A stretch of DNA of 64,000 nt from Patescibacteria group bacterium (GCA_041671645.1 JBAZBD010000001.1:799234-863233), one strand, 5' to 3'. Positions 14-31,993 are shown, numbered from the stretch's first letter. Made by a program: numbers and translations. The notes: generated by a model from the sequence alone, not told the origin.

Positions 14-41
14 TATAAAAATCCCCGCCGGAGAGGCGAGG
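14..41 (-). terminator. Rho-independent terminator (CCTCGCC-tctcc-GGCGGGG stem followed by a U-run on the minus strand). It is identical to the copy at 1788..1815.
   Basis: GC stem with one G-U pair, then ATTTTT on the minus strand, immediately downstream of the stop of the 56..1720 ORF. A 26-nt identical copy follows the next gene. Confidence 0.5.
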
Positions 42-55
42 AGAGGCAGGTAGTA

Positions 56-6402: not shown

Positions 6403-6664
6403 CGTTTCTCTTCCTGGCCAAAATTTGTTTGAGTTGATCCTCGATGAGCAATAAATCATGCATTGACTCGAACACTGAGAAAGCAAGAGCGAAAACGGCG
6501 ATGGCCGATATCAGCAAACCAGCTATGACCAATATTTTCTTGAGCAGCGAGGCGTCAGGGAAATTAACCAACAGCGATATGACGAATATCAATATCAAGG
6601 CGGCGATAATAATGCCTATAATCAAGACGAGGTAAGAGCCAAATTTTATTAGAAATCTTTTCAT
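6395..6664 (-). CDS. Small two-TM membrane protein, 89 aa.
   Basis: Two hydrophobic helices. It overlaps the ABC transporter start by 8 nt and sits between the FN3 protein and the transporter. Confidence 0.4.
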   Translation of the reverse strand: MKRFLIKFGSYLVLIIGIIIAALILIFVISLLVNFPDASLLKKILVIAGLLISAIAVFALAFSVFESMHDLLLIEDQLKQILARKRNDD

Positions 6665-7389: not shown

Positions 7390-10300
7390 TTATTTATCGC
7401 GATCGATCTCTATCTTCCTTGAAACAGTTTGGAGCTTCTCCTGGGCATCCATATGCGTAGCGTCAGAAGGTTTGTATCCAGCTTTGGCAACCAGGAGTTT
7501 GTATTTGCCCTTTGGCAGGACGGTTGAGAATTTGCCCTTTTCGTTTGTGACTGCTGTTCGAATTAATCTTTTGCCTTCGCCGTCCATGATTCTGACTAAT
7601 GCCAATGAAACTCCCGAGTGATTGACGCTATCTAGGACATTGCCCCAAGGTGAGACTTTGACGAAAGACTTGATGTTGACGTACCAAAGCAGTGGGAAGA
7701 GCAGAGCTGAGACCAGGGTGACCGTGTCACGGTGACTGTGAGCCAAGCTATTCAGGATAGAGACGGTGCCAAAAATCAGGAAGCCGAGGGAAACGTAGAC
7801 CAATACTTTTTCGACAACCCCGATTTTCTCGATAAATGAAAATCTCTTGGCGATGCTCTTGTCGTTCATCGAAAGCAAAATATTTGGTACGATCAGTCCT
7901 TCTTGCTCGCTCTTAACCTCGATGATCTGACCCTTTTTGTAGAAACCTGGGGCTTCAGAAACTTCATATAGATCTTTGGTCACCTCAATCTCATATTTGC
8001 CTGGATCAGCGACAAAGCTGAAGTTGCCTTCGATATCAGAATATGTATTGGCTACCGGCCTCTTTGAGAACGAGCCAGGGAAAGTTTGAGTTAATTTGAA
8101 GAGCGTCAGTTTGGCTTGAGCGATTGGGATATAAGTGCCAACCTCAAGTACTCGGCCCCACTTGCGACGGCTTTTCTTGGTGCCGAGAGAGGCAAGGGCG
8201 AAGATCAAAGAGCGAATGTATTCAGGAAGTGAGAATAGAGTGGCGGCATTGGCCAGTGGAGCGGCGGCGGCAGAGATAATCGCTATGCCAGCGACAGCAG
8301 CGGTGCTGGCTGGAGTAGTTGTCGATGTTGGTATGCCAAAGACTACGGGTTGGCCTGAATTGTTGACGCCCACGATTTGCATCTGACCAATAATATCGCG
8401 AACTTTCATGGCTGTGCCAGAGAGATTGGAGATAACAGTATCTAGGACCGATTGCTCCTTGAAAATATCCTTGGTGGCGAAAGTAAAGTCTGTCGATTCG
8501 GCAGTTTGGCCATATTTATCTTTGGAAATGACAGCGAAATGGTAAGTTTTGTTGAAGTCCAAATCGGACAAAACAACTGTATGGAAAGAGTTGAGCCCAG
8601 TATCAACCTCGGTCGTGTAAGGGTATGGAGCAGAAGCGCCATATTTGACTTGAGTGGTGGCTGGAACGGTAGTTTTCCAAGTGATGGTGGCTTGAGCCTT
8701 CTCTGACATCAACTCGCTAGGAGTTGCCTTCACGTCTGATATCTCCAAAGTGCCCTCGCCTGGCTCATCTGGCGGCAGGATAACACAGCCAGAACAATCT
8801 ACAACCGTAGTTGTCTGGAACTCAGCTGCCATACTAGCTGTCTGGTTCTTGGCTAGATCAAAAGAGAATACGGAGTAGTTGAATTGGGTATTTGGCGTGA
8901 CTGTGTCGACATAAGAAGCGTAGCCAGAAGCGTCGACCTGGACGCCAGAGGTTGATTCAGAAATTATATTGTTGCCGTTTTTGACGATAGTGTAGCCGAG
9001 CAACCCAGAGCCAGTGTCAGTACTGGCCTTCCAGCGAAGCATCACTCGGTAGTCAGAGTTGACCCGATCAGAGATGTCGAAAGCTTCTACCTTTTCTAAT
9101 GATGATGGGAGGACCGTATCTAAGATGAAGGTAAGTTCCTCTGACCAAGCGAACTGATTGCCTAGATTATCGTTTGCGGCCACTCTGACGTAGTAAGTGC
9201 CGTCGGCCAGAGCACTGGCACCATCCAAGGTCAGAGAATTTGAAGGAGAAGTCAGCGTAGAGAGAGACAGAGCGTCATTTGCGTTGGCGCAGCCAGAAGT
9301 CTTGCAGATCTTGATACTGTAATTTAAAATTCCTGAATTTGTATCTGTTGCGGCTGGCCAAGTCAAAGTGACGGCTGGCTGATTGTAATATTCAATGTTG
9401 TCGATAGTGTTGGTCTTACCAGATACCGTTGGCTTGCCAGGAGCTGTTGGCTTGTCGCTGTCTGGCTTGCCAGAAGCTTGATTGGAGGCGGCTGAATAGT
9501 TGTCGACGCTATCGATAGCTTCAACTTTGTAATAGTATGTGACACCGCTTGTGACGTTGCTATCAATGTAAGTGGCAGTCGAAGATAGAGTCGTATAAGC
9601 GATCTTGTTCGTACCGATATTTGGTGTGAAATCGGCCTCGGTGGAACGGAAGATAGCGACATTGGCGAAGTCTGTGTCGGTCGGATTGACCCAAGAGAGC
9701 GAAACAGAAGCGCTAGCAGAGAGAGCGGTCAGATTCGTCGGTGCGGATGGCGCTGTGATATCTAGGATAATTGATGCCGAAGCAGTCGGCGACTCATCAC
9801 CATCGATATCTTTGACTTTCAGGTAAACCGTCTTCATCCCGTCAACAGTAGGAGCGGCCAAAGTCCATGACTTGCTGGTTGAGAATGTTTCATACTCGCT
9901 GCCAGAGAAATCAGGAGAATTTGAGACCTTCATTTGTGTGCCAGTGCTAGAAGAAAGCGTAAGTGTTTGATCTATTTGATTTGTCCTAGCCGAAGAGAAT
10001 GAGATCGTGCCAGTCGGCGGGAACCATTTGTTGGTATTGCCGAGATTGATCGAATTTGAAGGATCGATGACCGCACTGCTTAGATTCTTGGAGTTTTCGA
10101 CAGAAAGATAGGAAGTAGAGGTCGAGCCCTTTGGATCAATCTTCCATTGATCTGTACCTGTGCCGCCAGATCTACTGAGCGTGATATTTCCAGCAGAAGT
10201 TCCGTTCAAGCTTAATGCACCGTTGACCGTCTGAGTCGTATCAGAAGCGAAACTAATTGTTCGAGCCGCAGACGCTGTGGCAGATAGATTATTGAAAGTG

Positions 10301-13300
10301 TTAGATCCAGCGACCGTCTGACCTCCGATGCCATTCAAGGTAATCGTTGATGTGCCAGGATCTACCGTCATGCCAGTGAAATCAATATTCCCGCCGATTG
10401 ATACTGATGACGACTCAAGGTTCAATACGTTGGTGTCGTCAGTCGAACCAGTGTATCTAAAGATTCCATTTGTGAATTCATGAGTACCAGAGCCAAGATT
10501 TGCTGTTCCAACGCCATATACGGGATAGGCAAGATAAAGATTTCTTGCAGTTAGATTGTTGTCAACAGCATTTAACGTTGTCCTCTTGCCAGTAGTTATA
10601 GAATAGGCGTAGATGTCACGAGTCGTCGTCACATCAGATGACAGAGTGATCGCGACATCGTTTGTCACACCGGAATAAGCGACTGACCCTTGGCCGAAGT
10701 TTTGGCCAGCGACCGTGACGTCAGATGATGGTCGATAAACAAGGAAAGTCGAAGCAGTAAAATTTGCGCCTGTGTTGACGACGGCATCGCCGTCTGACTT
10801 GTACATCCTGAACGCATATCTGTTGTCACCGTTCAATGTACCACCCGCGTAAGTGTAGAGAACATTTGAGGTAGTGACCGATGAAATCGCGTTGGTAGTA
10901 TTGCCGTTGTGCGCCAACTTCAGATTATAGAAATCATAGGGAGCCGCAGCATAACCTTTTGATTGCAACGTTCCAGTCCCGGTCAAGTCAACAGTTGAAG
11001 TGCCAGGGGTGACAGTGATATTGCTCGTATCCCAATTCCCGCCAACATTGATCGTTCCTGATCCAAGATCAAGCTTATTGCCGATATTTGAAGCATTGCC
11101 ATGCGAAAGACTGCCGGCAATATTTGTTGTGCCGGATCCTAACTTCAAATAGCCAGGGATTGTAGCGTACTCGTTGGTAGAGGTCGAGCCAATAGTCAAA
11201 TTTTTGCACGTTAGATTGTGCGTACTCATATCGACGTAGCCGGCTGGAGTGGTCGTTCTATCTTTTGCGACTATGACATTGCTGTTGCCAAAGTTGAAAT
11301 TGCCAGTTGCCGTAAGAATCCCTGTCGGATCTTGTTGGAATGAAAAGGTTGTAGCAAAATTACTTGGCAATGTTATCGCCTTCTGTGTCATATCAGCAAT
11401 TTGTGGATATATTGCAAGGACTCCCAGTCTTGAATCAGCAGTCAAGTTGTTCACTGTCACGCTGTCGTTGCTCCTAGAGTACACGATGACAGCTTTGCCA
11501 ATACCCATTAGCGTCCCAGGGCCTACTGTGAACGCGCCAGCAGAGCCAGAACCCAAGCCCACAGAGACACCGGCGGTCATAGTAGAAGTAATCCCGGAGC
11601 CCGCCGCAACCAGGCTACCAAAAGTATTATGCATATCAGGGTTGGCAATATTCCCGCTAGACGACTGGGTCCATACGCCGGTAGAGGCGAGAACGCCGAC
11701 TTTGTTTGCAATAATTATGTCACCAGCAATATTAACCGACTTTCCACCGTCAACTAATGTTCCGGCGTTTGCAGTCAATGATTGGGCCGACACATTATCT
11801 TGGAAAGTCCACCCTGCAGTAAGCGTATGATTCGCAAGCAAAGAGATATTATTATTTAGCAAAGTCACATTCGGGTCGATAACCGCATCAACACCGTTGA
11901 AGATAAGATTTCCAAGTACTTGACCATTTGTCGTAATCGTCTTGCCGGTCGTTGTCGGATTGAAGTTGATAGTGCTAGTACCTTCGTTGAACACTGCGGT
12001 TGGATCGGCGGTCATGGTTAAGGAGCCAGCGATATTTAAGGTTTGAGCATTTGCGGTGAATGTGCCGGCGTTAAGAGTAAAGTCGCCATCATCGTTCAAA
12101 GTAGTATTTGCCGAAATTGTCCCGCTGTAGCCGGTGTTGACTGATAGTGATTTGATGTGACTCGTAAAGCTAGCATCAAGCGTCGAATCTTTGGTTGATG
12201 TAGCGTCGAAAATAACATCGCAAGTTGCGCTTGGGATAATATTTGCCGTCCAGTTATCAGCACTTGACCAATTGTCATCCGCTGCTTGGCCGTCCCAGAC
12301 GCAAGTGTTGTTGGCGGCGAACGACACAGAGATTGAATGAGTTGCAGTTACATTTGTAAATGTATATGACGATGGTAAAGTGCCACTGATTGCGCTGCCA
12401 TCGACGACAACATTTGAGATATAATAGCCGTCGCTAGGCGTGATCGTGTACTCCGGGCTAGTCCCATAATTGGCTAAATTATCTCCGAGAGGAGAGATAG
12501 CCCCGTTACTGCCAGCACTTGAGCTAATAGTGTATGTCTTCAAGGTGAATGTGGCGGTGATGGTCTTGTCAGCAGTAATATTTGTTAGTGCCGCACTACC
12601 TGTGCCAGCGGCATCGCCGCTCCAACCAGTAAAGTCAGAAGATACAGCAGGCGTAGCAGCAACTGTCAAATTAGCGCCGTAAGTCACTACTTGTGTCGAT
12701 TGATCGAGATCACCGGTACCATTGCCAGCCTTGCTGATGGTGACTGTGTAACTTCTGATTGTAAATGTGGCCGTAATTGTCTTGTTAGCTGTGATGTTGG
12801 TGAAAGATGCGTCCCCTGTGCCAGTTGCGTCGCCAGACCAACCAGCGAAGGTAGAAGAAGCCGCTGGTGTGGCCACAACCGTTAGATTGGCGCCATAATT
12901 TACTGTTTGGGTTGCCTGATCCAGATCACCCATGCCAGTACCAGTTGTGTTGATAGTAATAGTATAAGTCTTGATTGTAAATGTGGCCGTAATTGTCTTG
13001 TTAGCTGTGATGTTAGTGAAAGATGCGTCCCCTGTGCCAGTTGCGTCGCCAGACCAACCAGTAAAGGTTGAAGAGATGTCAGCTGTCGCGACAACAGTCA
13101 AATTTGCGCCATAATTGACATCTTGGGTTACTTGGTCCAGATCACCCGTGCCAGTACCGGCTTCGTTGATGGTGATAGTGTAGGTTTTGATTGTGAAGAC
13201 CGCAGTAATGGATCTGTCTGCTGAAACATCAGTCAGATAGCAGATGTTGGTAGCGACTGTATCGCAACCAGTCCAGGAAACAAAGTCCGAGGAGGCTGCA

Positions 13301-16300
13301 GCGGTCGCAGTGGTAGTAACGTCTGCGCCAGCGTCAACAATCTGGGTCACCTGGTCGAGACTGCCCGAACCGCTACCGTCAGAGCTGATTGTCACAGAGA
13401 AGTTGTCTAGCGTTGTAGTATTGTTGGTCGCGCCGAAATCAGTTGCAACATTGTCGCCATTTCTAGCTTTGATCTTATAAATATAATTGGTATTTTTGGT
13501 GAGACCAGTATTCGCAAAACCTGAATCTCCGCCCCAGTCAGCGTAGAGCTGCCAGTCCTCTGAGACCTGGGTCGTACCATCAGCGTTTTTGACATAATTC
13601 CAAGTGCTTCCAGCATCAGCTGAAACGGCAATCGCGTATCGTGTATTTGCATTTGGATTGCCATTCTTGTCAACGGTGATTCTAATGCGAGATGACGACA
13701 ATGTTGTGACCGTAGGCTGGCCAGGAACCGCAGCCAAAGTATAGACGGTATCAGAGTTTGAATCTTGGCTACCGCCGCCGTTGTAGACATTTACGTGACG
13801 AGTGTAACCAGTGTTGGCCGAGAGAGGAGTCTCGTTGTAAGAAGTCGAGCCGGCATCGAGATTTCCAGAAAGGCTAGTGTGGGCAGAGTCCTCAACTTTG
13901 TAACCAGTTTCTTCACTGGTAATATCGCTCCAAGTCCAATTGATCTGCGTTGTCGAAGCGGCTGAGCCAGCAAAATCATCAGGAGATTCGACGCCACAAT
14001 TAGAAGTCTCAAAGCTTGATGGCGCGGCGTATGGGCCGGTACCGTTTGCAGTTGAAGTAGCAGAAGCTTTCCAATAATAGGTAGTGGTGTTTGAGAGTCC
14101 AGTAATCTGCTTGCTGGTCGTCGCTGTTGTCAATGTGCCAATGTTGGTTGCCGCCGTATCAGTACCATAAGAAACCGTATAGCTGTCTGCGCCAGTAGCG
14201 GCTGTCCAGGTCGTGGTAGCTTTGGTAGTACAAATATTCGTTATGTTCAATGCTGTTGGAGCGGCTGGAGGAGTGACATCAGCAACTGAGGTCGAGGTGT
14301 AAATAGTTTCAACATTATCGCCATTCTTGGCCTTCACCTTCATCCAATATTGAGTATTGGCAGCAAGATCAACGTTGTCTTTGTCTTTCTTGAATAGATA
14401 AGTCGTTTCAGTCTGCCAGGCCATCGCATTTGGATCGTAGAAATTGCCAGCACCGGCGCCATCATTGGTCGAGTATTGAATATAATAGTTTGTCCCTGCT
14501 GGATTGGCGCTCGCATTAATAGTAGTATCCAGATGCCAAAGGTCTGCGTCAGAATAGTCCCCTGCGACAGTGGTGAAAGTCGGGACATTGGCCAGAGTAT
14601 ATTTGGGCGCCGCATATGCCGGAGCAGAATCACCGCCGGAATTGGTCGCTACTACCTTGGCACAATATTGAGTATTAACTGATTTACTGGCGATAGCCTG
14701 GCTGACTGCATCAGCCGACGTCGTAGTATCTGGTGTACCAGAATATGAAGCGGCAGAACAATCTGCGTTGCCGTCAGCAGTATAGACCTTGTAGCCAGTC
14801 TCGATCGAAGAATTGTCCGTCCAAGTCACATTAAACGTAGTCGACGAAGTCGGAGTAATAGTGACTCCCGTTGCGCTGGCCGGTGCGTCAAGAGCAAAAC
14901 TAGCAGTCACTGCGATATCACCTGCTACGTTTGAGTCAGTTCGAGCCGCGGTCATGACATCATCAGACCAGGAGACGAAGTGGTAATTGGCGGCAGGAGT
15001 AGCGGTAACTTGGGAGCCATTCGCACCGTAATTGACTGTTTGAGGCGTGGAACCAACGACTGAGCCATTGGCGCCAGCAGAGTAAGTAAGAGTGTGAGTA
15101 TCGATGGCAAAACTAGCAGTCACTGATTTATCGGTGATCACATTGGTTTCCGTTCTCGCTGCAGTTAGAACACCATCAGACCATGAAGTGAAGTGGTAAT
15201 TAGCAGCAGGGGTAGCGGTAACTTCTGACCCGTTCGCGCCATAGTCAACTGTTTGAGGAGTTATGCCAACTATAGAGCCGCCCGAACCGGCCGAGTAAGT
15301 CAAGACGAATGCGCTAGGGCCGCCATCAGTAATTGTCCAAGTGTGAGCACTAACTAGATGAGCTCGGCCGTCAGCCGCCGCTCCAAGAGTATACTTTTTA
15401 GTTGCAGCACCAAGAGTCACGTTGCTCTTCACTGCCTGTGCCGACCAGCCAATCAAAATATTACTATAATTAGCGTTAGAAAGTGCCGAGCTACTAAACA
15501 TATTTGTCATATCCGTCACATTAACCACATTCCAGCTGGCCAAGTTTTGGTTGAAGGCTGCCGCGGAGTAGAACATTTGATTCATATTAGTCACAGCGCC
15601 AGTATTCCAATTGCTGATGTTTTGGTTGAAGGCACTGTTGTTCCAGAACATTTCACGCATAGTGGTCACAGAGCCGGTATTCCAACTGCTGATGTTTTGG
15701 TTGAACGCCCAAGCAGACTCAAACATATAGGCCATATTAATCACGTTAGTTGTATTCCAACTACCGATGTTTTGATTAAATACAAAGGCGTTGTAGAACA
15801 TGGCGTACATACTGGTCACGGCACCAGTATTCCAGCTACTAATGTCTTGATTGAAAAGAGAGGAAGACTCGAACATGCAGTACATATCTGTTACGGCTGA
15901 CATATCCCAGCTATTCATCGAGGGTACAGTGTCAATACCGCTATCTCTAAAGGAATTTTTCATTGTTGTCGTACCAGTCGTATTCAAGACATCGGTGGCG
16001 GTGATTTTAAGATTCTTCGTGCCGGAAAAATAACCGTCGGAGTTACCCAGTCGGAGTGGACCGAATTGACTGATTTGAGAAAGCTTTAACTTGTCACCAG
16101 CGTTGTTAAATCTGAATCCAGTAATTGTCCCACCAATTTTGAGATCATAAATACCGCCGCTGGCGTAGGTGTGAGTGGTTTCAGCTTGGTTCCAGGTAGT
16201 GATGGTACTAGTGGAGCTGTCACCCCAGTCAACGATAAAGTTGTAGGTGCCAGTGGATTCTAGGGGCAGATGAATTTGGGTTGCCGTACTGGAACCGCTT

Positions 16301-19300
16301 GAAGTCTTGCTGGTATCCCACCTGGAGAGGAATTGGAGGGCAAAGTTGGCCGTGACGGTGATATCAACGGTGACATTGGTGTCGGTGCGGGCGGCAGTAG
16401 TATTGGCATCTGACCAGTCTACGAAATAATAGCCAGCTGCTGGGGTAGCGGTAACTTGTGAACCGTTGGCACCGTAGTCAACAGTCTGTGGCGATGTACC
16501 AACAACTGAACCATTCGATCCAGCGTTGTAGGTCAAGGTGTAGGTGTTGATAGCAAATGTAGCCGTAACTGAAATATTATCAGCAACATTGAGATCAGTT
16601 CGAGCCGCGGTCATGACATCATCAGACCAAGATACGAAATGGTAGTTAGCAGCAGGAGTAGCGGTAACTTCTGAGCCGCTTGAGCCATGGTCAACAGTCT
16701 GGGGGGTGGTACCGACAATCGAGCCATTGGCGCCAGCAGAGTAAGTAAGAGTGTGGGTGTCGATGGCAAAACTAGCAGTCACTGCGATATCACCTGCTAC
16801 GTTTGAGTCAGTACGAGCAGCAGTCATGACGTCATCAGACCAAGATACGAAATGGTAGTTCGCAGCAGGAGTAGCGGTAACTTCTGAGCCGCTAGCGCCG
16901 TGATCAATGGTCTGAGGGGTGGTACCGACAATCGAGCCATTGGCGCCAGCAGAGTAAGCCAAAGTATGAGTGTCGATTGCGAAACTAGCCGTTGTCGTAA
17001 TGTTGGCCGTGACGTTGGTATCCGTTCGGACTGGATTAGTAGAGTCATTGTCTGACCATTTGACAAAATGGTAATTGGCGGCAGGAGTGGCAACAACTTC
17101 TGAGCCGCTTGACCCATGGTCAACAGTCTGAGGAGAGCTGCCGATAACTGATCCGTTGGCGCCAGAGTTATAGGTAAGGGTGTAGACGGCCAAGGTTGAT
17201 TGGTCGGCAGTAGCAGAATAAGCAGTCGCAACACTATCGCCATTTGTAGCGGCCACGGAGAAAGTATATAGGGTGTTGGCGGTCAGACCGGTCACGGTCT
17301 TGCTCGAACCCCAGGTCGCATAAGCTTGCCAGACAGCTGAATCGCCGAGTGTGCTGTTGGCTTGAACATATTTCGTCGTAGCGCCGTAGACTACTTTGAT
17401 GGCATAAGTCGTATTGGATGGATTGGAGTTTTGGGCAATCAGGACTGGAATAGTAGTCGAAGTGACTGTACCAAAAGTTGGAGTGCCAGGTACATTAGCC
17501 AAAGTATACTTGGCAGCAGTAGAGCTAAATGCTGTTTCGGTATTGTCACCATTTCTAGCTTTGACTTTGTAGGTGTATTGAACATTTGGACTCAAGGAAA
17601 CATTGTCAAATCCAGAAGCACCACCCCAGGCGGCATAGTTTTGCCAGTCTTCAGAAGCTTGATTGGTGCCGTCTGCATGTTTGACATAATTCCAAGTACT
17701 TCCGCCATCAGCTGAGACAGCGATAGCATAAGTAGTAGAAGAGTTGTCAGTAAGTTTGATATTGATGACGCTAGCAGATGAAGCAGCTAGGGTTGGAGCG
17801 TCAGGGGCGGCGGCAAGGGTGTATTTGGGCGCAGCATATGCTGGAGCAGAATCGCCAATTGCATTGGTGGCGATCACCTTGGCACAATATTGAGTATTGA
17901 TTGATTTACTCGTAATAGCTTGGCTAATAGCGCCAGCGGCAGTCGTATAATCAGGAGTGCCAGAGTAACTGGCGGCCGAACAATCAGCATTGCCAGCGGC
18001 AGTATAGACCTTGAAGCCGGTCTCGTTGCTGGAAGCGTCAGTCCAAGTCACTGTAAATCCAGTGGTAGTCAGCGTCCCAATGGCAACTGTGTTTGGCTCC
18101 GTTGGGGCAACGTCGACTGTGGTCTGAGCAGTTCCGCTAGATAGAGCGGTCTCAACATTGTCTCCGTTCTTGGCTTTAACTTTATAGGTATATTCTGTGT
18201 TGGCGGTGAGGCCAGTATTGGTAACTCCAGAAGCGCCACCCCAGGTAGTATAATCTTGCCAGACAGCAGAAGTATCTGAAGAACCGTCCGCCTGGACATA
18301 TTTGCTCAGAGTATCATTGTAAACGGCATAATTGGTGCCGGCTGGGTTGGAATTCTGGTTAATTTTGACGGTTAGAGAGCTCGAGGAAGTGGCGTCTACT
18401 GTCGGAGCAGAAGGTACATTAGCCAAAGTATACTTGGCAGCAGTAGAGCTAAATGCTGTTTCGGTATTGTCACCATTTCTAGCTTTGACTTTGTAGGTGT
18501 ATTGAACATTTGGACTCAAGGAAACATTGTCAAATCCAGAAGCACCACCCCAGGCGGCATAGTTTTGCCAGTCTTCAGAAGCTTGATTGGTGCCGTCTGC
18601 ATGTTTGACATAATTCCAAGTACTTCCGCCATCAGCTGAGACAGCGATAGCATAAGTAGTAGAAGAGTTGTCAGTAAGTTTGATATTGATGACGCTAGCA
18701 GATGAAGCAGCTAGGGTTGGAGCGTCAGGGGCGGCGGCAAGGGTGTATTTGGAAATCGAGTCGGTAGCTGCTGTGGTCTCTCCGTCTCCGTTTCTAGCCT
18801 GAGCGGTGTAGGAATACTGAGTATTTGGCGAAAGGCCAGTATTGGTAAGGGTATTGTTGTTGGTATTCCAAGAAGCAAAACCCGTGCCAGTTCCGGCAGA
18901 TTTAGTAATGTAGAGGCCAGATGAGCCAACGGACAAGTTGGTAAATGTGCCGGTAGCAGAGACTTGGATCGAATCAGTAGCTATCGTCCCGAAGGTGATA
19001 CCGGAAGCGGCCTCGATAGAGGAGTAGGCAGAAGCAGTAGAGGAAGCCTGGCCCAAAACTCCGTTGTAAGCACGGACGTAATTTGTATATTGAGTATTGG
19101 CTGAGAGTGAACCTTGATCATACGCCGAAGCGGATGGGCTCCCAACGTCTGAATCATCGGAGCTCTTTAGAAGTCTGTAGCTAGAGGCACCTGCGACATC
19201 AGCCCAATCCCAAGATATTTGAGAAGCGGTGTTGGCGGTGTGAGTCAAGCTTGCAGGCTGTGCCGGAGCGGAAGTAGCAGTGCCAGCAGAAGAGGCAGAA

Positions 19301-22300
19301 GTTTCGGTGGTGTCACCGTTTCGAGCCAGCGCTTTGACGGAATACAACGTGTTTGAGGTAAGATTTTTCAGGTAATTGACTGTGCCAGTTTCCCAATTTA
19401 CCTTGGTCTTCCAAACCTTTGATGCGCCGCAAGTGCCATCGCCCTGTAGCCATGAGTCTGGAGTTGCGTTGCAGGAAAGAGCAAACTCAGTCCCGGCTGG
19501 ATTTGAGTTGACATTGATTACCGCGGCCATATTATTTCCGCTGGCTGCGCTCCAATCGTAAGCAGTGACAGTGGGGGCATCTGGCGTATTAGCCAAAGTA
19601 TATTTCGGTGCAGCAAAGGCTGGATCAGAATCCCCGTCTGCATTGGTAGCGATCACTTTGGCGCAATATTGAGTATTGATAGTTTTGCCCGTAATGGCCT
19701 GGCTGGTAGCATCTGCGGCAGTGGTATAGTCTGGGGTGCCAGAATACGAAGCGGCGGAACAATCAGCGTTACCAGCGGCAGTGAAGACTTTGAATCCGGT
19801 CTCGTCGCTGGAATTATCAGTCCAAGTAACGGTAAATAAAGTAGAGTCAATCGAAGTGATCGCCACAGTGCTAGCCGCATTTGGCGGAGCCGAAGCGAAC
19901 CAGTTTACATTATTACCGGCGCTCGTAACGTTTGAACCTGAGTTATCGGTATAGATCGCAGTCGCGTTTGCATTTATCGAATCTTTCACTGAAGCATAAG
20001 AGATTGCTCTTGTGCTCTGAGGATCTATAGACCATGTAGAGCCATCAGAGGAAGAATTTAGAGAGATAACTCGACCAGAAGCTCCAGAAACCGTCAGCGC
20101 ACCTGCGATTGTTTGAGTTTTACTTGCCTCAAATTTCAAGGTTTTTGTTGTTGTCGCCCCAGGCTGTATTGTCACAGCGCTAAAAGTGGTATCGCCTGAA
20201 ATATCCTGGATGGAGCTATCTCCTCCATTGAAGACGACCGTGCCAGAATTGTGGGTGAAAGTACCAGCAGTGTGAGTGAAATCATTCGCAACGCTCATAG
20301 TGGTTGACGGAGCAGCGAAGGTACCGTCAGTTTGGATAAAACTACCCACAGTAACTGCATTTGCGCCAGAAGTGAAAGTGCCAGAGGAAACCGTTAGATT
20401 GTTCGAGGCGACAAGAGCGTCAGAAAGCGTAATTGATCCTGTCCCGCCCTGGCTCAAAACAATTTTTTTGTATGCATAGCCAGTAAAGTCACCAAGAGAA
20501 TACGGCGCTAGTCCTGTGTTTATCGTTGCAGCAACAACATTGGTTGATCCATTTATTTTGGAAACTGAATTTGCGCTGGAATTAGTAACCCAGACAAAAC
20601 CGCTTGCATCCACCGCAACACCGCAAGGAGCGCTTCCAACTGTGACTGTCGCAGCTACAGCATTTGTGGCTGTATTTATCTTGGTTACAGTATTTGTACC
20701 TAAATTTGAGACCCAAACAAAGCCGTTGGCATCAGCCGCAACGCCAAATGCATTCGTCCCCGCAGAAACAGTCGCTACAACTGTGTTTGTTGTTGGATTG
20801 ATTTTCGAAACATCACTTGTGCCATAATTCGGAACCCAGACAAAACCATTCAGATCAACTGCGACACCAGCAGGCTGTGTACCGACCGTAATAGTTGCCA
20901 CAACTGTGTCAGTCGTAGCATTGATTTTTGAAACTGTATTGCTATTAAAGTTTGCAACCCAGACAAAACCACTTGAATCGGCGGCGATTCCATAAGCACG
21001 CGCACCGACGTTCACTGTTGCTGCAATTGCATTTGTTGTCGGATTTATCTTGTACGCTACATTGTTCGTACCGCTAGCTACCCAAACAAACCCATTAGAA
21101 TCTATGGCCACGCCATAGGGATCAGAACCAATCGTAATCGAAGCATCTACGCTATTAGTGGAAGCATTAATTTTTGTTAAAGTACCGTTTGATCTGTTGG
21201 TTTGCCAAATAAACCCAGAATTATCAACAGCCACGCCAAATTCGGCCGCTCCGATTGTATGTGTAGTCACTGCGTTTGAAGATGTATCAATTTTTGTCGT
21301 CGTGGTTGCGCCAGAATTTGCAATCCACGCATAAGGAGTTGAAATCGTACCGGCCTGACCAGCCACAGTAATATTGTAAAAATCGTTGCTATTGCTAGCG
21401 ACTGTAGCAGCTGCTGTACCGTTGAAGTTTACCGTTGAAGTCCCTTTGGTGAATGTGCCACCAGTATTATTCCAGCTTCCACCAATATTTATTGTGTAAT
21501 TTCCCGCACTTAGAGTTCCCTCAGCAAGATTCAACGCTCCATCATCATTCAAATCCGCGCCGAGAGTAACCGTATCCGTGTAGCCAGTATTGATAGAGAG
21601 AGATTTGATGTGAGCAGTGAAACCGCTATCGAGAGTTGACGCCTTGGTCGAGGTGGAGTCAAAGACGACATCGCAAGCAGCATCAGGTACAGTATCAAGA
21701 GTCCAGTTCTCAGCTGTACTCCAATTGTTCCCTGTACCGCCGCCATCCCAAACACAACCAGGCAAAACGTCCCAATTGGTCACATTCACACCCTTGGTCC
21801 AGTTGGTCGGGCTTATTGGATTGGCCGCGTTATTCTTCGAATTTGAGACTGAAACATAGTCGACAGTCCACTGATTATCCATGCTCGTGCTTGGAGTGAT
21901 TTCCCATTGTGCACCAGTACCGTTGCGTTGAAGTGTTAACAAATTATCAGCGATACCGGTAGCGGTCCACTGGCCAGTCACAGTCTGATTCGTGCCTGGA
22001 TTGAAGCTGATCGTCCGAGCAGTCGAAGTCGTCATTGTAAAATTGTAAAATTCAGTCGAGCCGCCAACGACTTGGGCCAAGCTCGCAGAATTGAGCTCTA
22101 CGGTACCGTAGTTGTTGCTGAAAGTACCTCCGTCCCGAATAAAATCACCACTAACTTTCATGGTGCCGTTTGGAGCTGAAAAAGTACCAGTGTCCTGAGC
22201 AAAGTGTTTTGTCTCTACGTTGTAGCCATAAGCATTGAATGTATTCGCGAGCGTAATATTCAGCGAATGCTCGACAAGTAAAGTGTCCTGAGTCACGACT

Positions 22301-25300
22301 GTACCGTTAGCAGAGTTTGCAGATAATTGGTAGAACTGGTTGCTGCCGCATTTAACATAGTATGTGTTGGCAGAGTTGATATTGTTGATCCATACCGCGC
22401 CGTCGTTATTCACAAACGTACCACCGCCAGACATGTCGAAGAGGAAGTCAGTGGCAACATCATTGGCGTCAAGTGTTAGGACCTGGGCAGGCGCGTTAAA
22501 TGTACCGCCATAGAGATAAAAATTGTAACTTTTAATTGTAACGGTGGCTGTGTTGCTGTTGAAGGTGCCCGAGATAATAGTAGTAGAATAACCGTTCAAG
22601 ACCAAGGTTGAAGAATTGGAATTAAAAGTGCCGCCGTTTAAGTATAGTCCGCCTACTGTCACAGTGCCTGTACCAGCATTGAAAACAGCACCAGACTCAA
22701 CATAGAAGCTGCCCATGTCGCTAGAAGTAAATGTGGCAGTGGCATTGATTGTACCGTAAATATATGCGCCAGAAGAACCAACACTTGCACCTGGGGTATA
22801 AACTTTTGAAGCCGGGATATGAAGAGAATAACTAGTCGAGAGTACATTGGAACCATCGACACTGAACAAGATTTTTCCATTCGCGTCAGAACAATTATCA
22901 GCAGTCGCAAGAATAGTATTGGTCATCGGGCCAGAGTCTTCATAGGTGAGAGAAACCAGGTAAGAGTAAAGCGACAAGCCCGTGATGTCGCTAGAGCCGG
23001 CCGCAACAGTCACAATATTACCAGCTGAATAATTGCCATCTTCGAAGAAAATTGTAATAACTGTTCCGGCGGTAACACCGCCGGCGACGAAATCAAAAGC
23101 GCCATTCCCATCGGTTGCCATTGTCTGTTTTGCACCACCATTAACCGAGGCAGAAACATTTTGCCCAGAGCCAACATTCCCCTGCCCAATTCCCTGATAT
23201 GCAGTACCCGAGATATGACTGCCGAGCCAGTTGGTATTATTACTACCAGATGCAGTTGAGTTGGTCGGTGCGATTGGTCGAGAATTTAGATTGTTTGAAT
23301 CAGAATAAGTAACACGATCGACTGTCCAAGGCGACATCCCACTGGTGTTCGCATTTATCTTCCATTGGCCCGAGCCTGCAGTGCCGTTGAGCTTCATGAC
23401 AATGTTATTCCCAGCCGCGCCCTGTATTGTGAGCGCTCCAGAAATAGTCTGGGTTGAGTCTGCTGCAAAAGATAATGTCTTGCCAGCAGTGGCACAAGTA
23501 AAGCTAGAAGGAGCGTTGTCGCCAGAGATCACCGATTCTTGAGCAGTATCAAATGTCACGACATAAGGCGAGAAAGTGCCGCCAGCCGTCGTAGTCAGAT
23601 TGCGTCCGATTGTAATATCGCTACCTGAGAAATAAGCGCCTGAGCTGATAGCCGCATCGCGCCCAACAACAACTGCATAAGACGGCGATAAATAGCCGTT
23701 CGTCACAGAAAAGTCATTCGATACCGTAAAGCCAGCACTATAACCTACTGTCCCATCACCAGTGTTTGCGTAAATATAATTATAGATAGGCGGAACGTTT
23801 GTAAACGTATATGGATTGTAACTGCTATTAGCAGGAATTGAGCCAATTTTGAAAGTACCATTGGCGTTATTGAAAGTACCGCCAGAGATATTCCAAGTAT
23901 AATCACTATAATATCCGTTTGAGTCAGTTGTAATAGTCAATGTGCCCGAAGTAGATGTAAATGTACCACCGCTCATCGCAAATGATGCGTTTAGCATAGT
24001 AATCGTAGCAGTGTCACCATTAAATGTAGCACCGGTGCTAACCGTAATTTGATAATTTGATAAGGTCAAATTTGAAGTGTTAGCATTGAAAGTACCGCCA
24101 GAGAAAGTAGGAGTAGCCAAGATGTGAGTACCGCTACCAGCATTGAACTCGCCGCCAGCCTGATAAAATGAGCTGGAAAGAGTGAGGTTATTGGCTTCCA
24201 TCTCAACAATGCCATCGTTATACATACCATAGGCGTTTACATTGCCGCCAGGAGTAAACATCGTATACTGAGTGACATAAAGATCATACATAGTACTGAG
24301 AGTCGAACCAGAGACCGAGAAATCAGAGAAACAGCCGCAGTCATCAGCAATCGCTAAATCTGCGTTTGTAATAGCCCCTGCGGTATAGTCACTGTAAAGA
24401 GTGGTCTTGTATCGATACATATTGAGACCAGTTTTGTCTATGGCGGATTCAGGCAAATAGACGATACTGCCGGAATTGTAGCTCGGATCATTATCAATAA
24501 AGATGGTGACTGGTTTGCCAGCAACAAGCTCGACCCCGCTAAAGGAAAAAGTACCACCGGAGCCAGTGACGCCCGACATCTTTCCGCCACCGTTTGAGGT
24601 AATGGAAATCGGGATATCAGCGCCCAAAACGCTGCCGCCGATACCATCGTAAATTGTGCCGGAAATCGTATTGCCGCCAGAATATGTAACTGTTAATTTT
24701 GGATCGAGTGCCGTACCATCATTTTCTGCAAAGTAGCCATAGAAGTAGACACTATCATAATCGGCATTTATGGTTGGCTGACTATCTGCAGCATCAGCAG
24801 TGATTCTAAGACCAAGCTTCGTAACACCAGATGTACTAATAGCTGCTAGACCGCTTGCATTCATCGCGAAATCGTTGTATCCCATATCGTTGTAACTGGC
24901 GTACGGAATCGCAGATGCAAATGCAGTTGTTCCGAAAGTGTCGTAATCCGATGCTTGAAGCGAAGTGTTGCTAGAAGGGTTCGAGGAATACAGACCCAAA
25001 CTCGAATTCCAACCCGAAGGGTCACCCATCTTGTATGCGCCATATACGGAAAAATTGGCAGCTGAGATAGTCGCGGTGTTTGGGATGCTAGAAGTATCAA
25101 AGAGAAACGCACTTCTTGAGACGTAAGCCCAAGCAGCGTTGTTGCCAGCGGCGATTGCGGCCATATCACCGCTTGTTCCGTCATCAGCAGCGCTATATCC
25201 GCCAGACCTTATGGAAGCCCAGTCCCAATTGCTCCTACTGCTGTAAGTGTACCCATCAACAGACGTGACTTCAGTATGAGTATTTGGATAATAAATAACA

Positions 25301-27273: not shown

Positions 27274-27312
27274 CTTCCCTCCTGCGACAACCAGTCTTAT
27301 TATTATGAGTAT

Positions 27313-27341
27313 ATTTTAACAAGAGAAGTGAACTCGTTCAA
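27313..27341 (-). promoter_or_regulatory. Putative promoter of the giant gene (TTGAAC-N17-TAAAAT), with a GTGAAC-tc-GTTCAC inverted repeat overlapping the -35 element.
   Basis: Minus-strand sequence cccttgaacgagttcacttctcttgttaaaat, about 35 nt upstream of the RBS. Confidence 0.25.
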
Positions 27342-27429
27342 GGGCAAAAGAGGGTCTTGGCTGTTGATAAGATACAGAAAAATAGAACAAATTTATTTGC
27401 CTCATATTTGTCTTTGCTAGACTAGATAA

Positions 27430-28158
27430 TTAGTAAATTTTCTTTTGCAAATTTTGACGGATTTTCCACGAATCAACTATCATTTTGAGCCCATCTTTCA
27501 ATGGGTTGACAGTCGAATGTGGATCATCGTGCCAGGTGATCCCCTCCTCCTTTATTTTGTATCCTAATTTTTTGGCAATAGCTAAAACTTCAATATCGAA
27601 AGAGAAGTCAAATATGGTCAGCTTCTCGAAAATCGCTCCGGCCGCCTCTTTCGAAAATAATTTGAAACCGCACTGTGTGTCTTTGATCCCAGGCGTCACA
27701 AGGGCTTGGATCATCCAGTTCAAAGCTCGGCTGCCCGCTCTTCGAGTGAATGACTGTGGGATGGCTAATTTGCCACCTTTGCAGTATCTGGAGCCGATGA
27801 CGACATCGTATTTATCGATATGGGCAAGAAGTTTGTCGACCTGTTCGATTGGGGTAGAATTATCAGCATCGGCGAATAACACATACTGGCCCTTTGCCAA
27901 TTTGATTCCGTCCTGCACTGCACCACCCTTCCCGCGGTTCTGTTCGCCTTCGTAGATCACCAGATTCGGAATTCTGTCCACAAAATGTTCGGCGGAGCCA
28001 ACCGTGTCATCAGGGGATGCATCAATTGCAACTATCGTTTCGACGATGAAGTCTTTGGTTTTAACATATTTTTCTATCGCTTCCAGAATAACGTGGATCC
28101 GTTTTTCTTCACGATATGCCGGAATCACAATTGATAAATAGATTTTCTCGTCCATCAA
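27430..28158 (-). CDS. GT2 polyprenol-phosphate glycosyltransferase (DPM1/GtrB-like), 242 aa.
   Basis: Matches the dolichol-P-mannose synthase family through LSIVIPAYRE, the DAD motif (FADADNSTP) and GSRY. Confidence 0.8.
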   Translation of the reverse strand: MMDEKIYLSIVIPAYREEKRIHVILEAIEKYVKTKDFIVETIVAIDASPDDTVGSAEHFVDRIPNLVIYEGEQNRGKGGAVQDGIKLAKGQYVLFADADNSTPIEQVDKLLAHIDKYDVVIGSRYCKGGKLAIPQSFTRRAGSRALNWMIQALVTPGIKDTQCGFKLFSKEAAGAIFEKLTIFDFSFDIEVLAIAKKLGYKIKEEGITWHDDPHSTVNPLKDGLKMIVDSWKIRQNLQKKIY

Positions 28159-29993
28159 AGTCCTATTTTGTGATTAATATTTGGTCTGGGATAATCAAGA
28201 TATTTGATCGGATACGGAGATTTGGGCGGATGTTGCTTCAAGTCTTCCGGAGTAATGTTGTAGACCAGGATAGAGCCACCAATAATCGCCTTTGGCTTAA
28301 TATCGTCAAGCCAGTTGTACGACCATTTGCCCTCTTCTGGACCACGTAATTTTGACAATTGATAGAAAGTCGCAGAGACAGCCAACCAGCCCGTAGTGGG
28401 TCCGTAGCTAGAATGCCAGTCTGTACGACTTGGCAAGTAATAGGTGGGGACTGAACCGAAATAATCCACCTTAATATTCGTGATATTATTGTCGCCTACG
28501 TATTTCTTGAGTCGGAGAAAGTCCTGGCCCCAATCAAGTGAAGAGTCAACTAGCCTGGTGTAGCGCTTGTCTTTGGGGGTGAGTTCATTGAAATACGCGA
28601 TGAAATTAGGGAAATTTGAGATTGTTGAAACAGCTAAATATGCCAGAAGAATAACTAGGGCGATCTGCATCCGACCCAGTTTCCGCCAATTCCAGCTGGG
28701 ATTCACAATTGGATAAATTGCATAACCGATCATCAATAATACGAAGGGAATCGTTGGCATGAGATGACGAATACCAATGTTCAGCGAACCCTGCAATGTG
28801 ATAGCCCAGTAAATAACCCATGGCACGATTAGGAGCGAGAGCATCCATTTGATTTCTTTTTGCTTTGGCCAATTACGAATTATCGAATAAACAGAAAAGA
28901 AAAACATAGCTATGATTGGTAAGGGAGTTTTGAGCAACCAAGCGACCGGGAAATACCAGGGGATTGATTTGTCAGAAAGATGACCCCAAATAAAGGTTGC
29001 ATTGCCACCGCCAACACGGCCGATAACTAGGAATATTCCCAGGATATAGTGGCCAAGTGCTCGCAAGTACGGATTATTTTCAAATAAGTGGAGAAAGTTT
29101 CTAAGGGGCAAAGTCCTCGCATCGGACGTCATATTTGTGTCTATCAATTGATGCTCGATAGCAGGCGGAGTCTTCCAAACCAAAGGTAGGTAAACCAACC
29201 AGACGACCACCAATGAGATCAGACTGACATATACTAGAGGCATGAAATTTGCAACAAAATTATGCCGGAAGCCTTTCTCCTTTCTATCCAAAACGGCCCG
29301 AACTACCACGAGAATGAAGAAAATCGGGAACAGCAAAACCCCAGAAAACTTTAGGAGTTCAGCTATCCCGAGCGCAACTCCGGCAAGCAAAATGCTCGAC
29401 AAAGTTTTCTTAGTGACCGCCTTGTCAAAGGCATACGTCGCCAAGACAAAACCAAATGCCGCCGCTACGTCGGTAGTGACTAGCCGGCCGTGAGCGATGA
29501 CGTCAGGGTAAAGCGCATATAGGAAAAGGATGACTACGCCGACTTTCCAGCCGAAGAGCTCAATCGCCCACTTGAAGAGCAACAGGCCCAGCCCAATCAT
29601 GAGCAGCATCATCGGAAGTCTGGCAAGAGAGAATACTTCGGCAGGATCGTTGCCTTGACGATAAATCATGCTCCAGCCCGATTCCCATTGGTTTATGTCT
29701 TTGAAGCTTGAATCGTCCTCTGGACCCTTGATCTTACTATTCATGACGAGAGGAACACCGGCCAGAACTTTCGCCAGAGGCGGATGCTCTGGATTCAATC
29801 GATAATCTTGATCTTTTAAGTAGGTATAGCCAGCGGGAATATGTGCGATTTCATCGACAATAGCAGAATCACCCGGCGTGTTTCCGATCCCTCGGGAGGA
29901 AAATAGGGCGAGCAAGAACATAAACAGGAGAATCCCCGCAGGCACGAAATATTTATATTGTATTTTACTGCAGATCCTCTTTAGCAATTTCAT
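28155..29993 (-). CDS. GT-C glycosyltransferase of PMT_2 / GT39-like type (phospholipid-carrier-dependent, YkcB/ArnT-like), 612 aa.
   Basis: DEIAHIPAGYTY...NPEHPPLAKVL is the DE-x-H plus PPL signature of PMT/ArnT-type GT-C enzymes. About 11 TM helices and a C-terminal soluble domain are present. It overlaps the neighbouring genes by 4 nt and 29 nt. Confidence 0.7.
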   Translation of the reverse strand: MKLLKRICSKIQYKYFVPAGILLFMFLLALFSSRGIGNTPGDSAIVDEIAHIPAGYTYLKDQDYRLNPEHPPLAKVLAGVPLVMNSKIKGPEDDSSFKDINQWESGWSMIYRQGNDPAEVFSLARLPMMLLMIGLGLLLFKWAIELFGWKVGVVILFLYALYPDVIAHGRLVTTDVAAAFGFVLATYAFDKAVTKKTLSSILLAGVALGIAELLKFSGVLLFPIFFILVVVRAVLDRKEKGFRHNFVANFMPLVYVSLISLVVVWLVYLPLVWKTPPAIEHQLIDTNMTSDARTLPLRNFLHLFENNPYLRALGHYILGIFLVIGRVGGGNATFIWGHLSDKSIPWYFPVAWLLKTPLPIIAMFFFSVYSIIRNWPKQKEIKWMLSLLIVPWVIYWAITLQGSLNIGIRHLMPTIPFVLLMIGYAIYPIVNPSWNWRKLGRMQIALVILLAYLAVSTISNFPNFIAYFNELTPKDKRYTRLVDSSLDWGQDFLRLKKYVGDNNITNIKVDYFGSVPTYYLPSRTDWHSSYGPTTGWLAVSATFYQLSKLRGPEEGKWSYNWLDDIKPKAIIGGSILVYNITPEDLKQHPPKSPYPIKYLDYPRPNINHKIGL

Positions 29994-31500
29994 TTTGTCC
30001 CTCCAAAATATTTGACCTCTTTGTTGATTTCGTAGTCACTCTGAAAACTTCAAGATATTTACCAAACATCAGCCGAGTCTGTGATTCCATAGCTGGGATG
30101 GAAGAAAAGAAAATGTTGGAAATCGGCATTACAAATGGGGTCAGGCACCAGTCGAGTAGAATTCGACCAAATGGTTTCCTGCCTTGTCTCTTCGGCATCA
30201 GAAGGGTAGAAATCACAAGTGTGACAATCATACCGAGCCATGCGATAGTCAGCATTTTGATATACACTCCGCGAAAGCTATATGCCAAAATGTCTCCCTG
30301 AAAGGCAGAGCCGAAAAAAACCGGAATCCAGGCTGAAGTGATCAGGACCAACGATGTCGTCGACCAGGAGATATGTGATTCCCATAATATCAAAGCGTTC
30401 GCCCACCTGTCAAAAAACGGTATTTTGTGGTTTCCTATCGTATTTTCCATCACAAAAGGGATGTCTGACACACCCCAAGCCCAACGTTTTTTCTGCAAAT
30501 ACTGCTCACGCATAGTATTCCTGAAAGTGTCAGCCAAGACTGCGTCCTGATAGATTGGAGTATACATCGGTACCACTTCGTGACAGCCGTCAAACCGATA
30601 ATAAGTTCGCCAAAACTGATGGCCGTCTTCCACAATCGTCTTGGTCGACCAGAAATCTGTTTGGACTAGTGCGGCTAGACTCTGTGCATGGGCAGAGAAA
30701 TTACGAAGCCGAGAAGGTCTTGTCGTAACAATTAATTGCCAAAAAGACGAACCCATCGCCATCAACCGATTCATCATCGGCACGTCCCAAATATTGTTGA
30801 AAAACATAGGCAACGGCTGAAAACTTTTGTGGATGGGATCGGGATCAGTGACATATTTATAAGTCAGATCGAGGAGATAATTTTTGTCCATGATATGGTC
30901 CGAATCCATCGTTGTCACGACCACATTTTCGTAAGGAATTTTCTCTTTGTCGATTTGTTCGAGTACCTTTCTGGCCGCGTAGGTGATGTTCCCACCTTTA
31001 CCGATCACTTCACCGGGAATATCCTTGGGATGCATTACGGTCATGAAAAGATGAAACTTCTTGCCGTGCTTTTCGGTTAATATTTTGGAATACTCCCCTG
31101 CCCGTTCTTTGTCGCGCTCCTCCGTCCCCAAGACATAAATAACATGATCCTGCGGGTAATTCGAAGTGAGAACGGAACGAATAGATGATTCTAGAATTTC
31201 AATATCTTCCTTGTATGTCGGAACAATCACAAGATGATATATCTCCTTCCATTTGCCGTCCGTCTGGTCTAATTTTGCTTGCCAATCAGTTTTCATGTCA
31301 CGTCGATAATTTCGATAACCCAGGATTAACCGATAAGACATCACAAATGTTCTTATCAACCAGTAAGTTAGATAAAAAATCATGTAAATAGCAAATACTT
31401 TTGGCGAGACTAGGACAACGACGAAAGGCAAAAGCAATATTGACCAAGAAATCAAACCGGGGAGTACTTCAAACAATCTTTTGTATTTCCAGGTGTTCAT
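29965..31500 (-). CDS. Membrane-embedded processive GT2 (cellulose/chitin/hyaluronan-synthase-like), 511 aa.
   Basis: D, DxD (TMDSDH), (T)ED and QKKRW (QxxRW) motifs, with TM helices on both sides of the catalytic domain. Confidence 0.7.
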   Translation of the reverse strand: MNTWKYKRLFEVLPGLISWSILLLPFVVVLVSPKVFAIYMIFYLTYWLIRTFVMSYRLILGYRNYRRDMKTDWQAKLDQTDGKWKEIYHLVIVPTYKEDIEILESSIRSVLTSNYPQDHVIYVLGTEERDKERAGEYSKILTEKHGKKFHLFMTVMHPKDIPGEVIGKGGNITYAARKVLEQIDKEKIPYENVVVTTMDSDHIMDKNYLLDLTYKYVTDPDPIHKSFQPLPMFFNNIWDVPMMNRLMAMGSSFWQLIVTTRPSRLRNFSAHAQSLAALVQTDFWSTKTIVEDGHQFWRTYYRFDGCHEVVPMYTPIYQDAVLADTFRNTMREQYLQKKRWAWGVSDIPFVMENTIGNHKIPFFDRWANALILWESHISWSTTSLVLITSAWIPVFFGSAFQGDILAYSFRGVYIKMLTIAWLGMIVTLVISTLLMPKRQGRKPFGRILLDWCLTPFVMPISNIFFSSIPAMESQTRLMFGKYLEVFRVTTKSTKRSNILEGQNEIAKEDLQ

Positions 31501-31829
31501 TGGTGAGATAGATAATAAATTTCCAAAATCATTACAAGTGCTACTGCCAAGATATTGCCGATGAAGAGGAGATAGCCAATTTCGCGTTCTCTTTTGAAGG
31601 AAGAAAAGGCCAAAACAGTGTTGAGAATCAGAATGATGAAAAGCAGTTTGATTGGGTAAACACCGATTCTGATATAGACAAAAATGTCTGGAGAGCTAAG
31701 CAAGAAATGCCAGATAAGATAATCTACAAACGACCAGATTAGGGAAATAGAAAACAAATACCGATTCACGATATCGTCAACCAGAAATTCCTTCAGGAAC
31801 GGACCAAGGGTGGTTATATATTTTTTCAT
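31497..31829 (-). CDS. Small polytopic membrane protein (possibly a GtrA-like flippase partner), about 110 aa.
   Basis: Three or four TM helices, 4-nt overlap with the processive GT2 gene. The start is trimmed to Met9 to avoid overlap with tRNA-Thr. The GtrA assignment is inference from context only. Confidence 0.35.
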   Translation of the reverse strand: MKKYITTLGPFLKEFLVDDIVNRYLFSISLIWSFVDYLIWHFLLSSPDIFVYIRIGVYPIKLLFIILILNTVLAFSSFKREREIGYLLFIGNILAVALVMILEIYYLSHQ

Positions 31830-31842
31830 ATTTTTTGTATTT

Positions 31843-31918
31843 TGGAGCCGCATTCGAGATTCGAACTCGAGACCTCCACTTTACGAAAGTGTTGCTCTAC
31901 CAGCTGAGCTAAAGCGGC
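31843..31918 (-). tRNA. tRNA-Thr (anticodon CGT).
   Basis: The reverse complement folds as a cloverleaf with anticodon loop TTCGTAA, T-loop TTCGAAT and CCA encoded. There is one T-T mismatch in the acceptor stem. Confidence 0.8.
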
Positions 31919-31919
31919 A

Positions 31920-31993
31920 TGGAGCGGGTAGTGGGAATCGAACCCGCGACTCATCCTTGGGAAGGATACATTTTACCACTAAACTATACCCGC
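31920..31993 (-). tRNA. tRNA-Gly (anticodon CCC).
   Basis: The reverse complement folds as a cloverleaf: acceptor GCGGGTA/TACCCGC, anticodon loop TTCCCAA, T-loop TTCGATT, discriminator U and CCA encoded. One C-A mismatch lies in the T-stem. Confidence 0.75.

Follow-up and report, generated by a model that had tools for sequence, protein, structure and literature searches.

A 64,000-nucleotide stretch of DNA from a Patescibacteria group bacterium (GCA_041671645.1 JBAZBD010000001.1:799234-863233), referred to below as the window, encodes a giant surface protein in which one fibronectin type III (FN3) module occurs in two copies that are identical at every base over 341 bp. The gene begins at a TTG start codon, and its 19.9-kb open reading frame (ORF) of 6,627 codons is unbroken. 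Pfam matches in the product include fn3 (E = 1e-23 over the whole protein), Flg_new_2/Flg_new (InlB-type B-repeats), DUF285, and NHL, while no enzymatic domains were detected in it. A hydropathy scan placed one transmembrane-like segment near the N-terminus, at amino acids (aa) 102-129, and three at the C-terminus (aa 6322-6347, 6490-6508, and 6520-6538). The ~6,190 aa between the N- and C-terminal segments, which comprise NHL-type repeats, FN3 modules, InlB-type B-repeats, and a DUF285 region, probably form the ectodomain.

The identical 341-bp pair

The FN3 region was segmented on the recurring linker motif KYTLA, and modules B1 and B2 of this segmentation make up the identical pair. The gene and the two copies are located as follows, in positions counted from the first letter of the window:

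7390..27273, minus strand, giant surface-protein gene (from the ORF list and translation)
18412..18752, minus strand, repeat copy 1: FN3 module B1 (aa 2842-2946) and the KYTLANVP of the next module, to aa 2954
17488..17828, minus strand, repeat copy 2: FN3 module B2 (aa 3150-3254) and the KYTLANVP of the next module, to aa 3262

Exact repeats were sought by comparing shared 25-mers, all against all, across the window. The longest direct repeat is the 341-bp pair, followed by repeats of 47, 46, 43, and 43 bp, all within the giant gene, and an exact match of 341 bp in 64 kb is far beyond chance. An earlier note on this DNA had described 17489..17828 and 18413..18752 as identical at all bases; no mismatch was found between them, and the maximal match is one base longer (17488..17828 = 18412..18752). 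The copies are in frame and are offset by 924 bp, or 308 codons. They encode the same 113 aa (K2842-P2954 and K3150-P3262), in agreement with the ~113-aa FN3 segment that the note had recognized and that adopts an FN3 fold in the AlphaFold model. On the gene strand, identity starts 2 nt ahead of the Lys codon of KYTLAAAP and stops right after the Pro codon of KYTLANVP, and thus the copied piece corresponds to one domain and a linker, namely module B (105 aa) and, from the module after it, the eight initial codons (KYTLANVP, 24 nt). The GC content of the block (0.457, against 0.475 for the giant gene) gives no signal of a foreign origin.

An AlphaFold2 model of the module B unit is all-beta with a predicted local distance difference test (pLDDT) score of 83. 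Among the top 50 matches listed by Foldseek against the PDB, essentially all are FN3 or FN3-type (cytokine-receptor) domains, with template modeling (TM) scores up to 0.65. The Pfam fn3 match of module B alone is weak and below threshold (E = 0.044), and its sister modules match at E = 1e-3 to 1e-4. On the strength of the model and its structural matches, the duplicated unit is assigned to the fibronectin type III domains.

Module order and edges of the repeat

The modules are arranged in the order A1-D1-E-X-B1-C-A2-B2-C' (aa 2462-3362). C' is followed by four InlB-type repeats, the DUF285 region, two more InlB-type repeats, and A3-D2, with B3 further downstream. Four features delimit the repeat and its closest relative within the gene:

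18753..19017, minus strand, FN3 module X, upstream of copy 1 in the gene sense (Pfam fn3 E = 8.6e-5; edge alignment)
17829..18411, minus strand, 583-bp spacer separating the copies, which encodes the remainder of FN3 module C and all of FN3 module A2
17188..17487, minus strand, remaining part of FN3 module C' on the downstream side of copy 2, with ~62% DNA identity to C (3' edge of the repeat)
13414..13746, minus strand, FN3 module B3, the closest diverged paralogue of B (59% DNA identity, 61% aa identity)

Module X and module A2, which precede copies 1 and 2, respectively, are unrelated in DNA, and the 5' edge of the repeat is sharp. Neither of the spacer modules is repeated at high identity, as C is 62% identical to C' in DNA and A2 is 70-75% identical to A1 and A3. 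At an offset of 924 bp, the identity profile drops at once to random (~8/30) toward higher coordinates and to ~60% toward lower ones. This profile excludes a simple tandem duplication with a 924-bp period, as the earlier note had described the pair; only 341 of the 924 bp are repeated, Tandem Repeats Finder (TRF) reports no array there, and the copies are therefore interspersed rather than tandem units. The note had also put neighboring FN3 units at about 80% DNA identity, a figure that proved too high, as the A-type modules near 14625, 17830, and 19600 (A1/A2/A3; units 14559-14841, 17781-18063, and 19560-19842) are 67-77% identical.

Among the relatives of module B within the gene, nothing lies between 100% and 59% DNA identity, and other pairs of FN3 modules in the giant gene are 45-75% identical. 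Zero differences over 341 bp give a 95% upper bound of 0.88% divergence per site. Set against the 45-75% identity of the other pairs, this implies a very recent copy or conversion event, as the note had proposed.

Relatives of the giant gene

Approximately 98 related loci were fetched for comparison and are designated by L numbers where they need to be told apart. The closest relative found, a metagenome contig (L042), shares 66% aa identity over the region, and scans of GTDB genomes and JGI metagenomes yielded no homologue closer than this. Among the protein-database matches listed, all under ~840 aa, the best (P0001) has 69% aa identity. The best genome-level relatives of the giant gene occur in metagenome-assembled genomes (MAGs) of Candidatus Berkelbacteria (55% aa) and Saccharibacteria (48% aa). 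Another relative, found via a neighboring gene (L099), has 76% DNA identity, and its contig stops ahead of the giant gene. Exact-protein look-ups for the same gene in other samples gave only the source contig and a 7.6-kb Logan contig.

In L042, two paralogous modules that flank an A module are 87% identical in protein and 80% in DNA, with a longest exact run of 23 bp; 40 of the codon differences between them are synonymous and 14 are non-synonymous. In this gene family, old duplicates thus drift at silent sites under purifying selection, so the zero divergence of B1 and B2 points to a separate recent event. The order of modules is informative as well. A KYTLAN.P module with an NSNP motif comes directly after the A-type module at A1 and A3 of the window, and the same holds for L042, L043, and L002. 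A2 is the only A-type module followed by B, and deletion of B2 restores the usual order. However, because modules have been shuffled between relatives, an ancestral module order based on orthologues is only partly informative.

Perfect in-frame repeats also occur in other giant ORFs, at 3 of the ~98 loci (217 bp in L002, 295 bp in L030, and 353 bp in L081). The repeat of L030 (L030:7206-8067, in an ORF of 2,564 aa) has a period of 567, and that of L081 (L081:7016-7797, in an ORF of 2,287 aa) has a period of 429; both have shoulders of 70-90% identity. Unlike these shouldered repeats, the 341-bp pair of the window has sharp edges.

Two assemblies of a homologous giant gene can be compared directly. 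L002 (Berkelbacteria MAG ELA735) and L046 (JGI Ga0194052) represent the same Berkelbacteria population and match at every base along stretches of 9,789 bp and 5,532 bp, and a perfect tandem 213-bp InlB-type unit is present twice in the former (L002:9577-10006) and once in the latter (L046:9644-9856). This one-unit difference reflects either true population variation or assembly collapse. A second difference between the two begins near L002:15535.

Other repeats in the giant gene

TRF found only protein-repeat arrays of 75, 213, and 216 nt in the giant gene, together with one 13-nt repeat of 1.9 copies. Two of these groups contain patches of exact identity:

12756..13061, minus strand, second repeat pair: 12756-12845 against 12972-13061, 90 bp with one mismatch, in 216-nt Flg_new_2-type units
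14887-15333 and 16333-17183, minus strand, 213-nt InlB-type B-repeat arrays that flank the DUF285 region (span 14887..17183)

The second pair consists of exact runs of 43 bp (12756-12798) and 46 bp (12800-12845) separated by the single mismatch. The earlier note had taken it for a perfect pair of about 95 bp at 12757/12972; in fact, 92 of the 95 bases match, the offset is 216 (12756 against 12972), and the repeats are of the InlB type rather than FN3. The 216-nt units are 83% identical overall, and a longest run of 46 has a permutation P of 0.003. Between the two InlB-type arrays, exact patches of 35-47 bp recur in either of two registers, with offsets of 1659 and 1872, and identity within the arrays is clustered (permutation P = 0.002-0.01, with units 78-84% identical). 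These mosaic patches are suggestive of small conversion tracts, although the permutation tests on identity patches cannot tell conversion apart from purifying selection that is stronger locally, and are to be read as suggestive only.

Origin of the identical pair

[quoted passage not shown] Module B and the first 24 nt of the following module would have been copied to another place in the gene where two modules meet, most likely the A2|C' junction with its conserved KYTLA linker. For the 3' joint, the site of resolution would be the KYTLANVP linker, which is conserved, along with the homeologous C-type module. The 24 nt of KYTLANVP are identical at the starts of C and C' despite module bodies of 62% identity, so the joint was probably resolved there; other copies of the motif differ at 3-6 bases. 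The 5' joint would have had at most ~7 nt of microhomology (CCAAATA) available, and the copy may have been made in one step through a template switch or through homology-anchored illegitimate recombination. Replication slippage between the KYTLA motifs at the ends of B does not account for the pair, as these motif copies differ at 5 of 15 bases (AAATACACCCTTGCC vs AAGTATACTTTGGCT) and slippage would yield adjacent copies, whereas the observed ones are interspersed.

If so, the two copies now bracket a 924-bp cassette of 308 codons (B-C-A2). This cassette could be lost or amplified through ordinary RecA/RuvABC recombination, and the stalk would then shorten or lengthen by three FN3 domains with the frame kept. 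Simulated recombination between the copies gave in-frame products of 6,319 or 6,935 aa. Pfam matches to the following relevant genes were found in the window:

44208-45257, minus strand, RuvB
45331-45897, minus strand, RuvA
50378-50899, RuvC
54562-56001, Competence domain of ComEC, and 53699-54565, metallo-beta-lactamase domain of ComEC (ComEC as two adjacent ORFs)

These matches indicate that genes for homologous recombination and DNA uptake are present in the organism; with RuvA, RuvB, RuvC, and ComEC encoded, recombination between the copies is mechanistically plausible. All four genes lie within 12 kb of each other.

Several points weigh against a recent one-step duplication. A single assembly underlies both the copy number and the exact identity. 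Which way the event ran (from B1 to B2 or vice versa), and whether it was an insertion or a replacement, is inferred only from module order, for which the relatives used are distant (55-66% aa). Deleting B1 likewise leaves a plausible order, X-C, and according to simple motif patterns L044 and L045 have no NSNP motif right after the A module. Finally, a 5' joint free of homology is unusual for classical gene conversion, yet it is no proof of a template switch.

The main alternative to a one-step copy is long-term conversion, in which long-standing B paralogues have been held identical by repeated intragenic gene conversion and the 341-bp block is a conversion tract. This account is possible but rather doubtful. 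The downstream flanks C and C' are homologous at ~62%, as expected from an older duplication of a B-C unit, the clustered-identity patches of the InlB-type arrays suggest that conversion acts in this gene, RuvABC is present, and the module after A in L042 resembles the one before it. However, a conversion tract has homology on both sides, and here only the downstream flank (~60%) is related; as X and A2 share no DNA homology, the tract would have to start from the first codon of the module without an upstream anchor. Identity does not decay at either edge, whereas L030 and L081 have shoulders of 70-90%, and C and C', saturated at 62%, would need a very sharp and stable conversion boundary. The equivalent paralogues in L042, diverged at 40 synonymous codons, also argue against ongoing homogenization there. 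An artefact of assembly or polishing, by which a longer B-C-A2 array was collapsed or slightly different copies were made identical, is unlikely. The exact repeat of 341 bp exceeds typical short-read and assembler k-mer lengths, and the path X-B-C-A2-B-C' is the look to be expected of a collapsed (B-C-A2)n-B array. The one-unit difference between the otherwise identical L002 and L046 fits such an artefact and makes the warning of assembly collapse in the earlier note a reasonable one, and short-read assemblies of giant genes are reported to be fragmented by repeats (bioRxiv 10.1101/2023.11.21.568195). Nevertheless, a genome in which X|B, B|C, A2|B, and B|C' all occur as junctions must hold two or more copies of B, and an artefact may therefore alter the number of cassettes or erase differences but not invent the duplication. 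The source contig of 867,751 bp, approximately a whole Patescibacteria genome, suggests long reads or careful curation, and the 19.9-kb ORF is intact. Moreover, an independent Logan assembly of run SRR18595301 matches the window at 100% identity over 7,587 bp (24391..31977, including the first 961 codons of the giant gene), so the consensus of the window is accurate there. The Logan contig ends at 24391, 2.9 kb into the gene and well before the 341-bp repeat, possibly owing to strain-level polymorphism or a drop in coverage. No repeat of the window of at least 25 nt lies at this end.

It is also very improbable that the pair is a selected variation device, in which the identical copies vary the length of the stalk, as in Periscope Proteins, or its surface antigenicity in the population. 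The giant surface protein with its FN3 stalk, the in-frame shift of 308 aa that recombination between the copies would bring about, and the copy-number difference between L002 and L046 are consistent with such a device. However, only two copies are identical, they are not adjacent, and the other modules are 45-75% identical, so there is no tandem array of high identity. The giant gene contains no homopolymer of at least 8, and its only simple-sequence repeat (SSR) is (AG)5 at 26795, and slipped-strand phase variation was rejected on these grounds. Inversion or a shufflon was rejected on the negligible inverted repeats (10 shared inverted 25-mers in the whole window) and on the 30 flanking ORFs scanned, none of which has a Pfam match to a recombinase, integrase, or reverse transcriptase. 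A target of a diversity-generating retroelement was likewise rejected, as the copies show zero differences and no reverse transcriptase domain occurs among those ORFs. Thus, there is no sign of a programmed mechanism of variation.

The recent duplication of module B rather looks as if it arose unprogrammed, as a side effect of similar modules recombining, and was retained because it keeps the frame and leaves whole domains intact. Most likely it adds one more example to a well-known class of events that modular surface proteins commonly undergo and that is to be expected in such genes. On this reading, the pair offers a snapshot of the growth of a giant modular surface protein, with a whole FN3 domain copied in frame, bounded by a conserved linker, and seen before mutations. 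The pair also shows where variants differing in length by three domains could arise in frame, and flags a site at which the copy number of the assembly needs verifying.

Neighboring genes and features

Upstream of the giant gene lie glycosyltransferases (GT2, GT39/PMT-like, and GT2), and downstream of it a small secreted FN3 protein and then a fused ABC/FtsX transporter. In L042, the homologue of the small protein (window 6667-7386) forms the C-terminal end of the giant ORF (~5600-6250), fused in frame, while the transmembrane and transthyretin-like C-terminal part of the window protein is absent there. The window and L042 therefore differ by a fusion or fission of modules or genes. By the NCBI accession numbering from MFA6963893 to MFA6963898 (window 3721-28155), as many as four proteins would fit between VIT1 and GT2, and only three ORFs are counted there (the ABC/FtsX transporter, the small FN3 protein, and the giant gene); it may be that the giant gene is split in the public annotation or that one more small ORF is called there.

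An exact direct repeat of 28 bp, ATAAAAATCCCCGCCGGAGAGGCGAGGA, occurs at window 15-42 and 1789-1816, directly downstream of two minus-strand genes that follow one another (56-1720 and 1823-3607). Its minus-strand sequence reads as a GC-rich hairpin with a T-run after it and looks like a duplicated terminator. The ORF of 554 aa between the two copies has no Pfam match.

Comparison with known systems

Intragenic conversion in bacterial surface proteins resembles the present case in that an in-frame perfect block lies between paralogous modules amid diverged repeats. However, the 341-bp block has one edge without flanking homology and no shoulders, and a duplicative insertion fits it better.

Phase-variable adhesins, to which the earlier note had likened the gene, share with it a surface-protein gene containing repeats. 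The likeness does not extend to mechanism, as the gene has no simple-sequence tract beyond (AG)5 and no invertible segment, and no recombinase was found in the scanned ORFs. The recombination products stay in frame, and they would therefore be length variants, not ON/OFF states.

The giant proteins described from Omnitrophota and Clostridia metagenomes (10.1101/2023.11.21.568195) are likewise membrane-anchored and built of adhesion-type repeats (FN3, Listeria-Bacteroides, and leucine-rich repeat-like DUF285), and the internal repeats of their genes also complicate assembly. In contrast, the protein considered here has 6,627 aa, far below the class of >30,000 aa, originates from a Patescibacteria MAG, and has no detected enzymatic domains.

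In Periscope Proteins, highly similar domains stand in tandem arrays, and strains differ in how many they have; the class includes variable-length fibrillar adhesins such as SasG, Aap, Rib/alpha C, and Sgo_0707 (PMC8201768). The giant protein shares with them a stalk of beta-sandwich domains and DNA-identical domain copies that could recombine in frame, thereby changing its length. It differs in that only B1 and B2 are identical, with C and A2 between them, and the rest of the stalk consists of diverged neighboring domains rather than a tandem array. A working likeness, by which identical DNA repeats permit in-frame changes in length, is thus only a possibility drawn from analogy. A bolder and decidedly unlikely proposal is that the 341-bp copies act as the working hinge of a length-variable stalk in a host-attachment protein of a Patescibacteria episymbiont, with 0, 1, 2, or more B-C-A2 cassettes. 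If this were true, the assembly would display just one of the cassette-number variants of the population, and the Periscope principle would be extended to CPR bacteria by means of a heterologous three-domain cassette in place of a single repeated domain.

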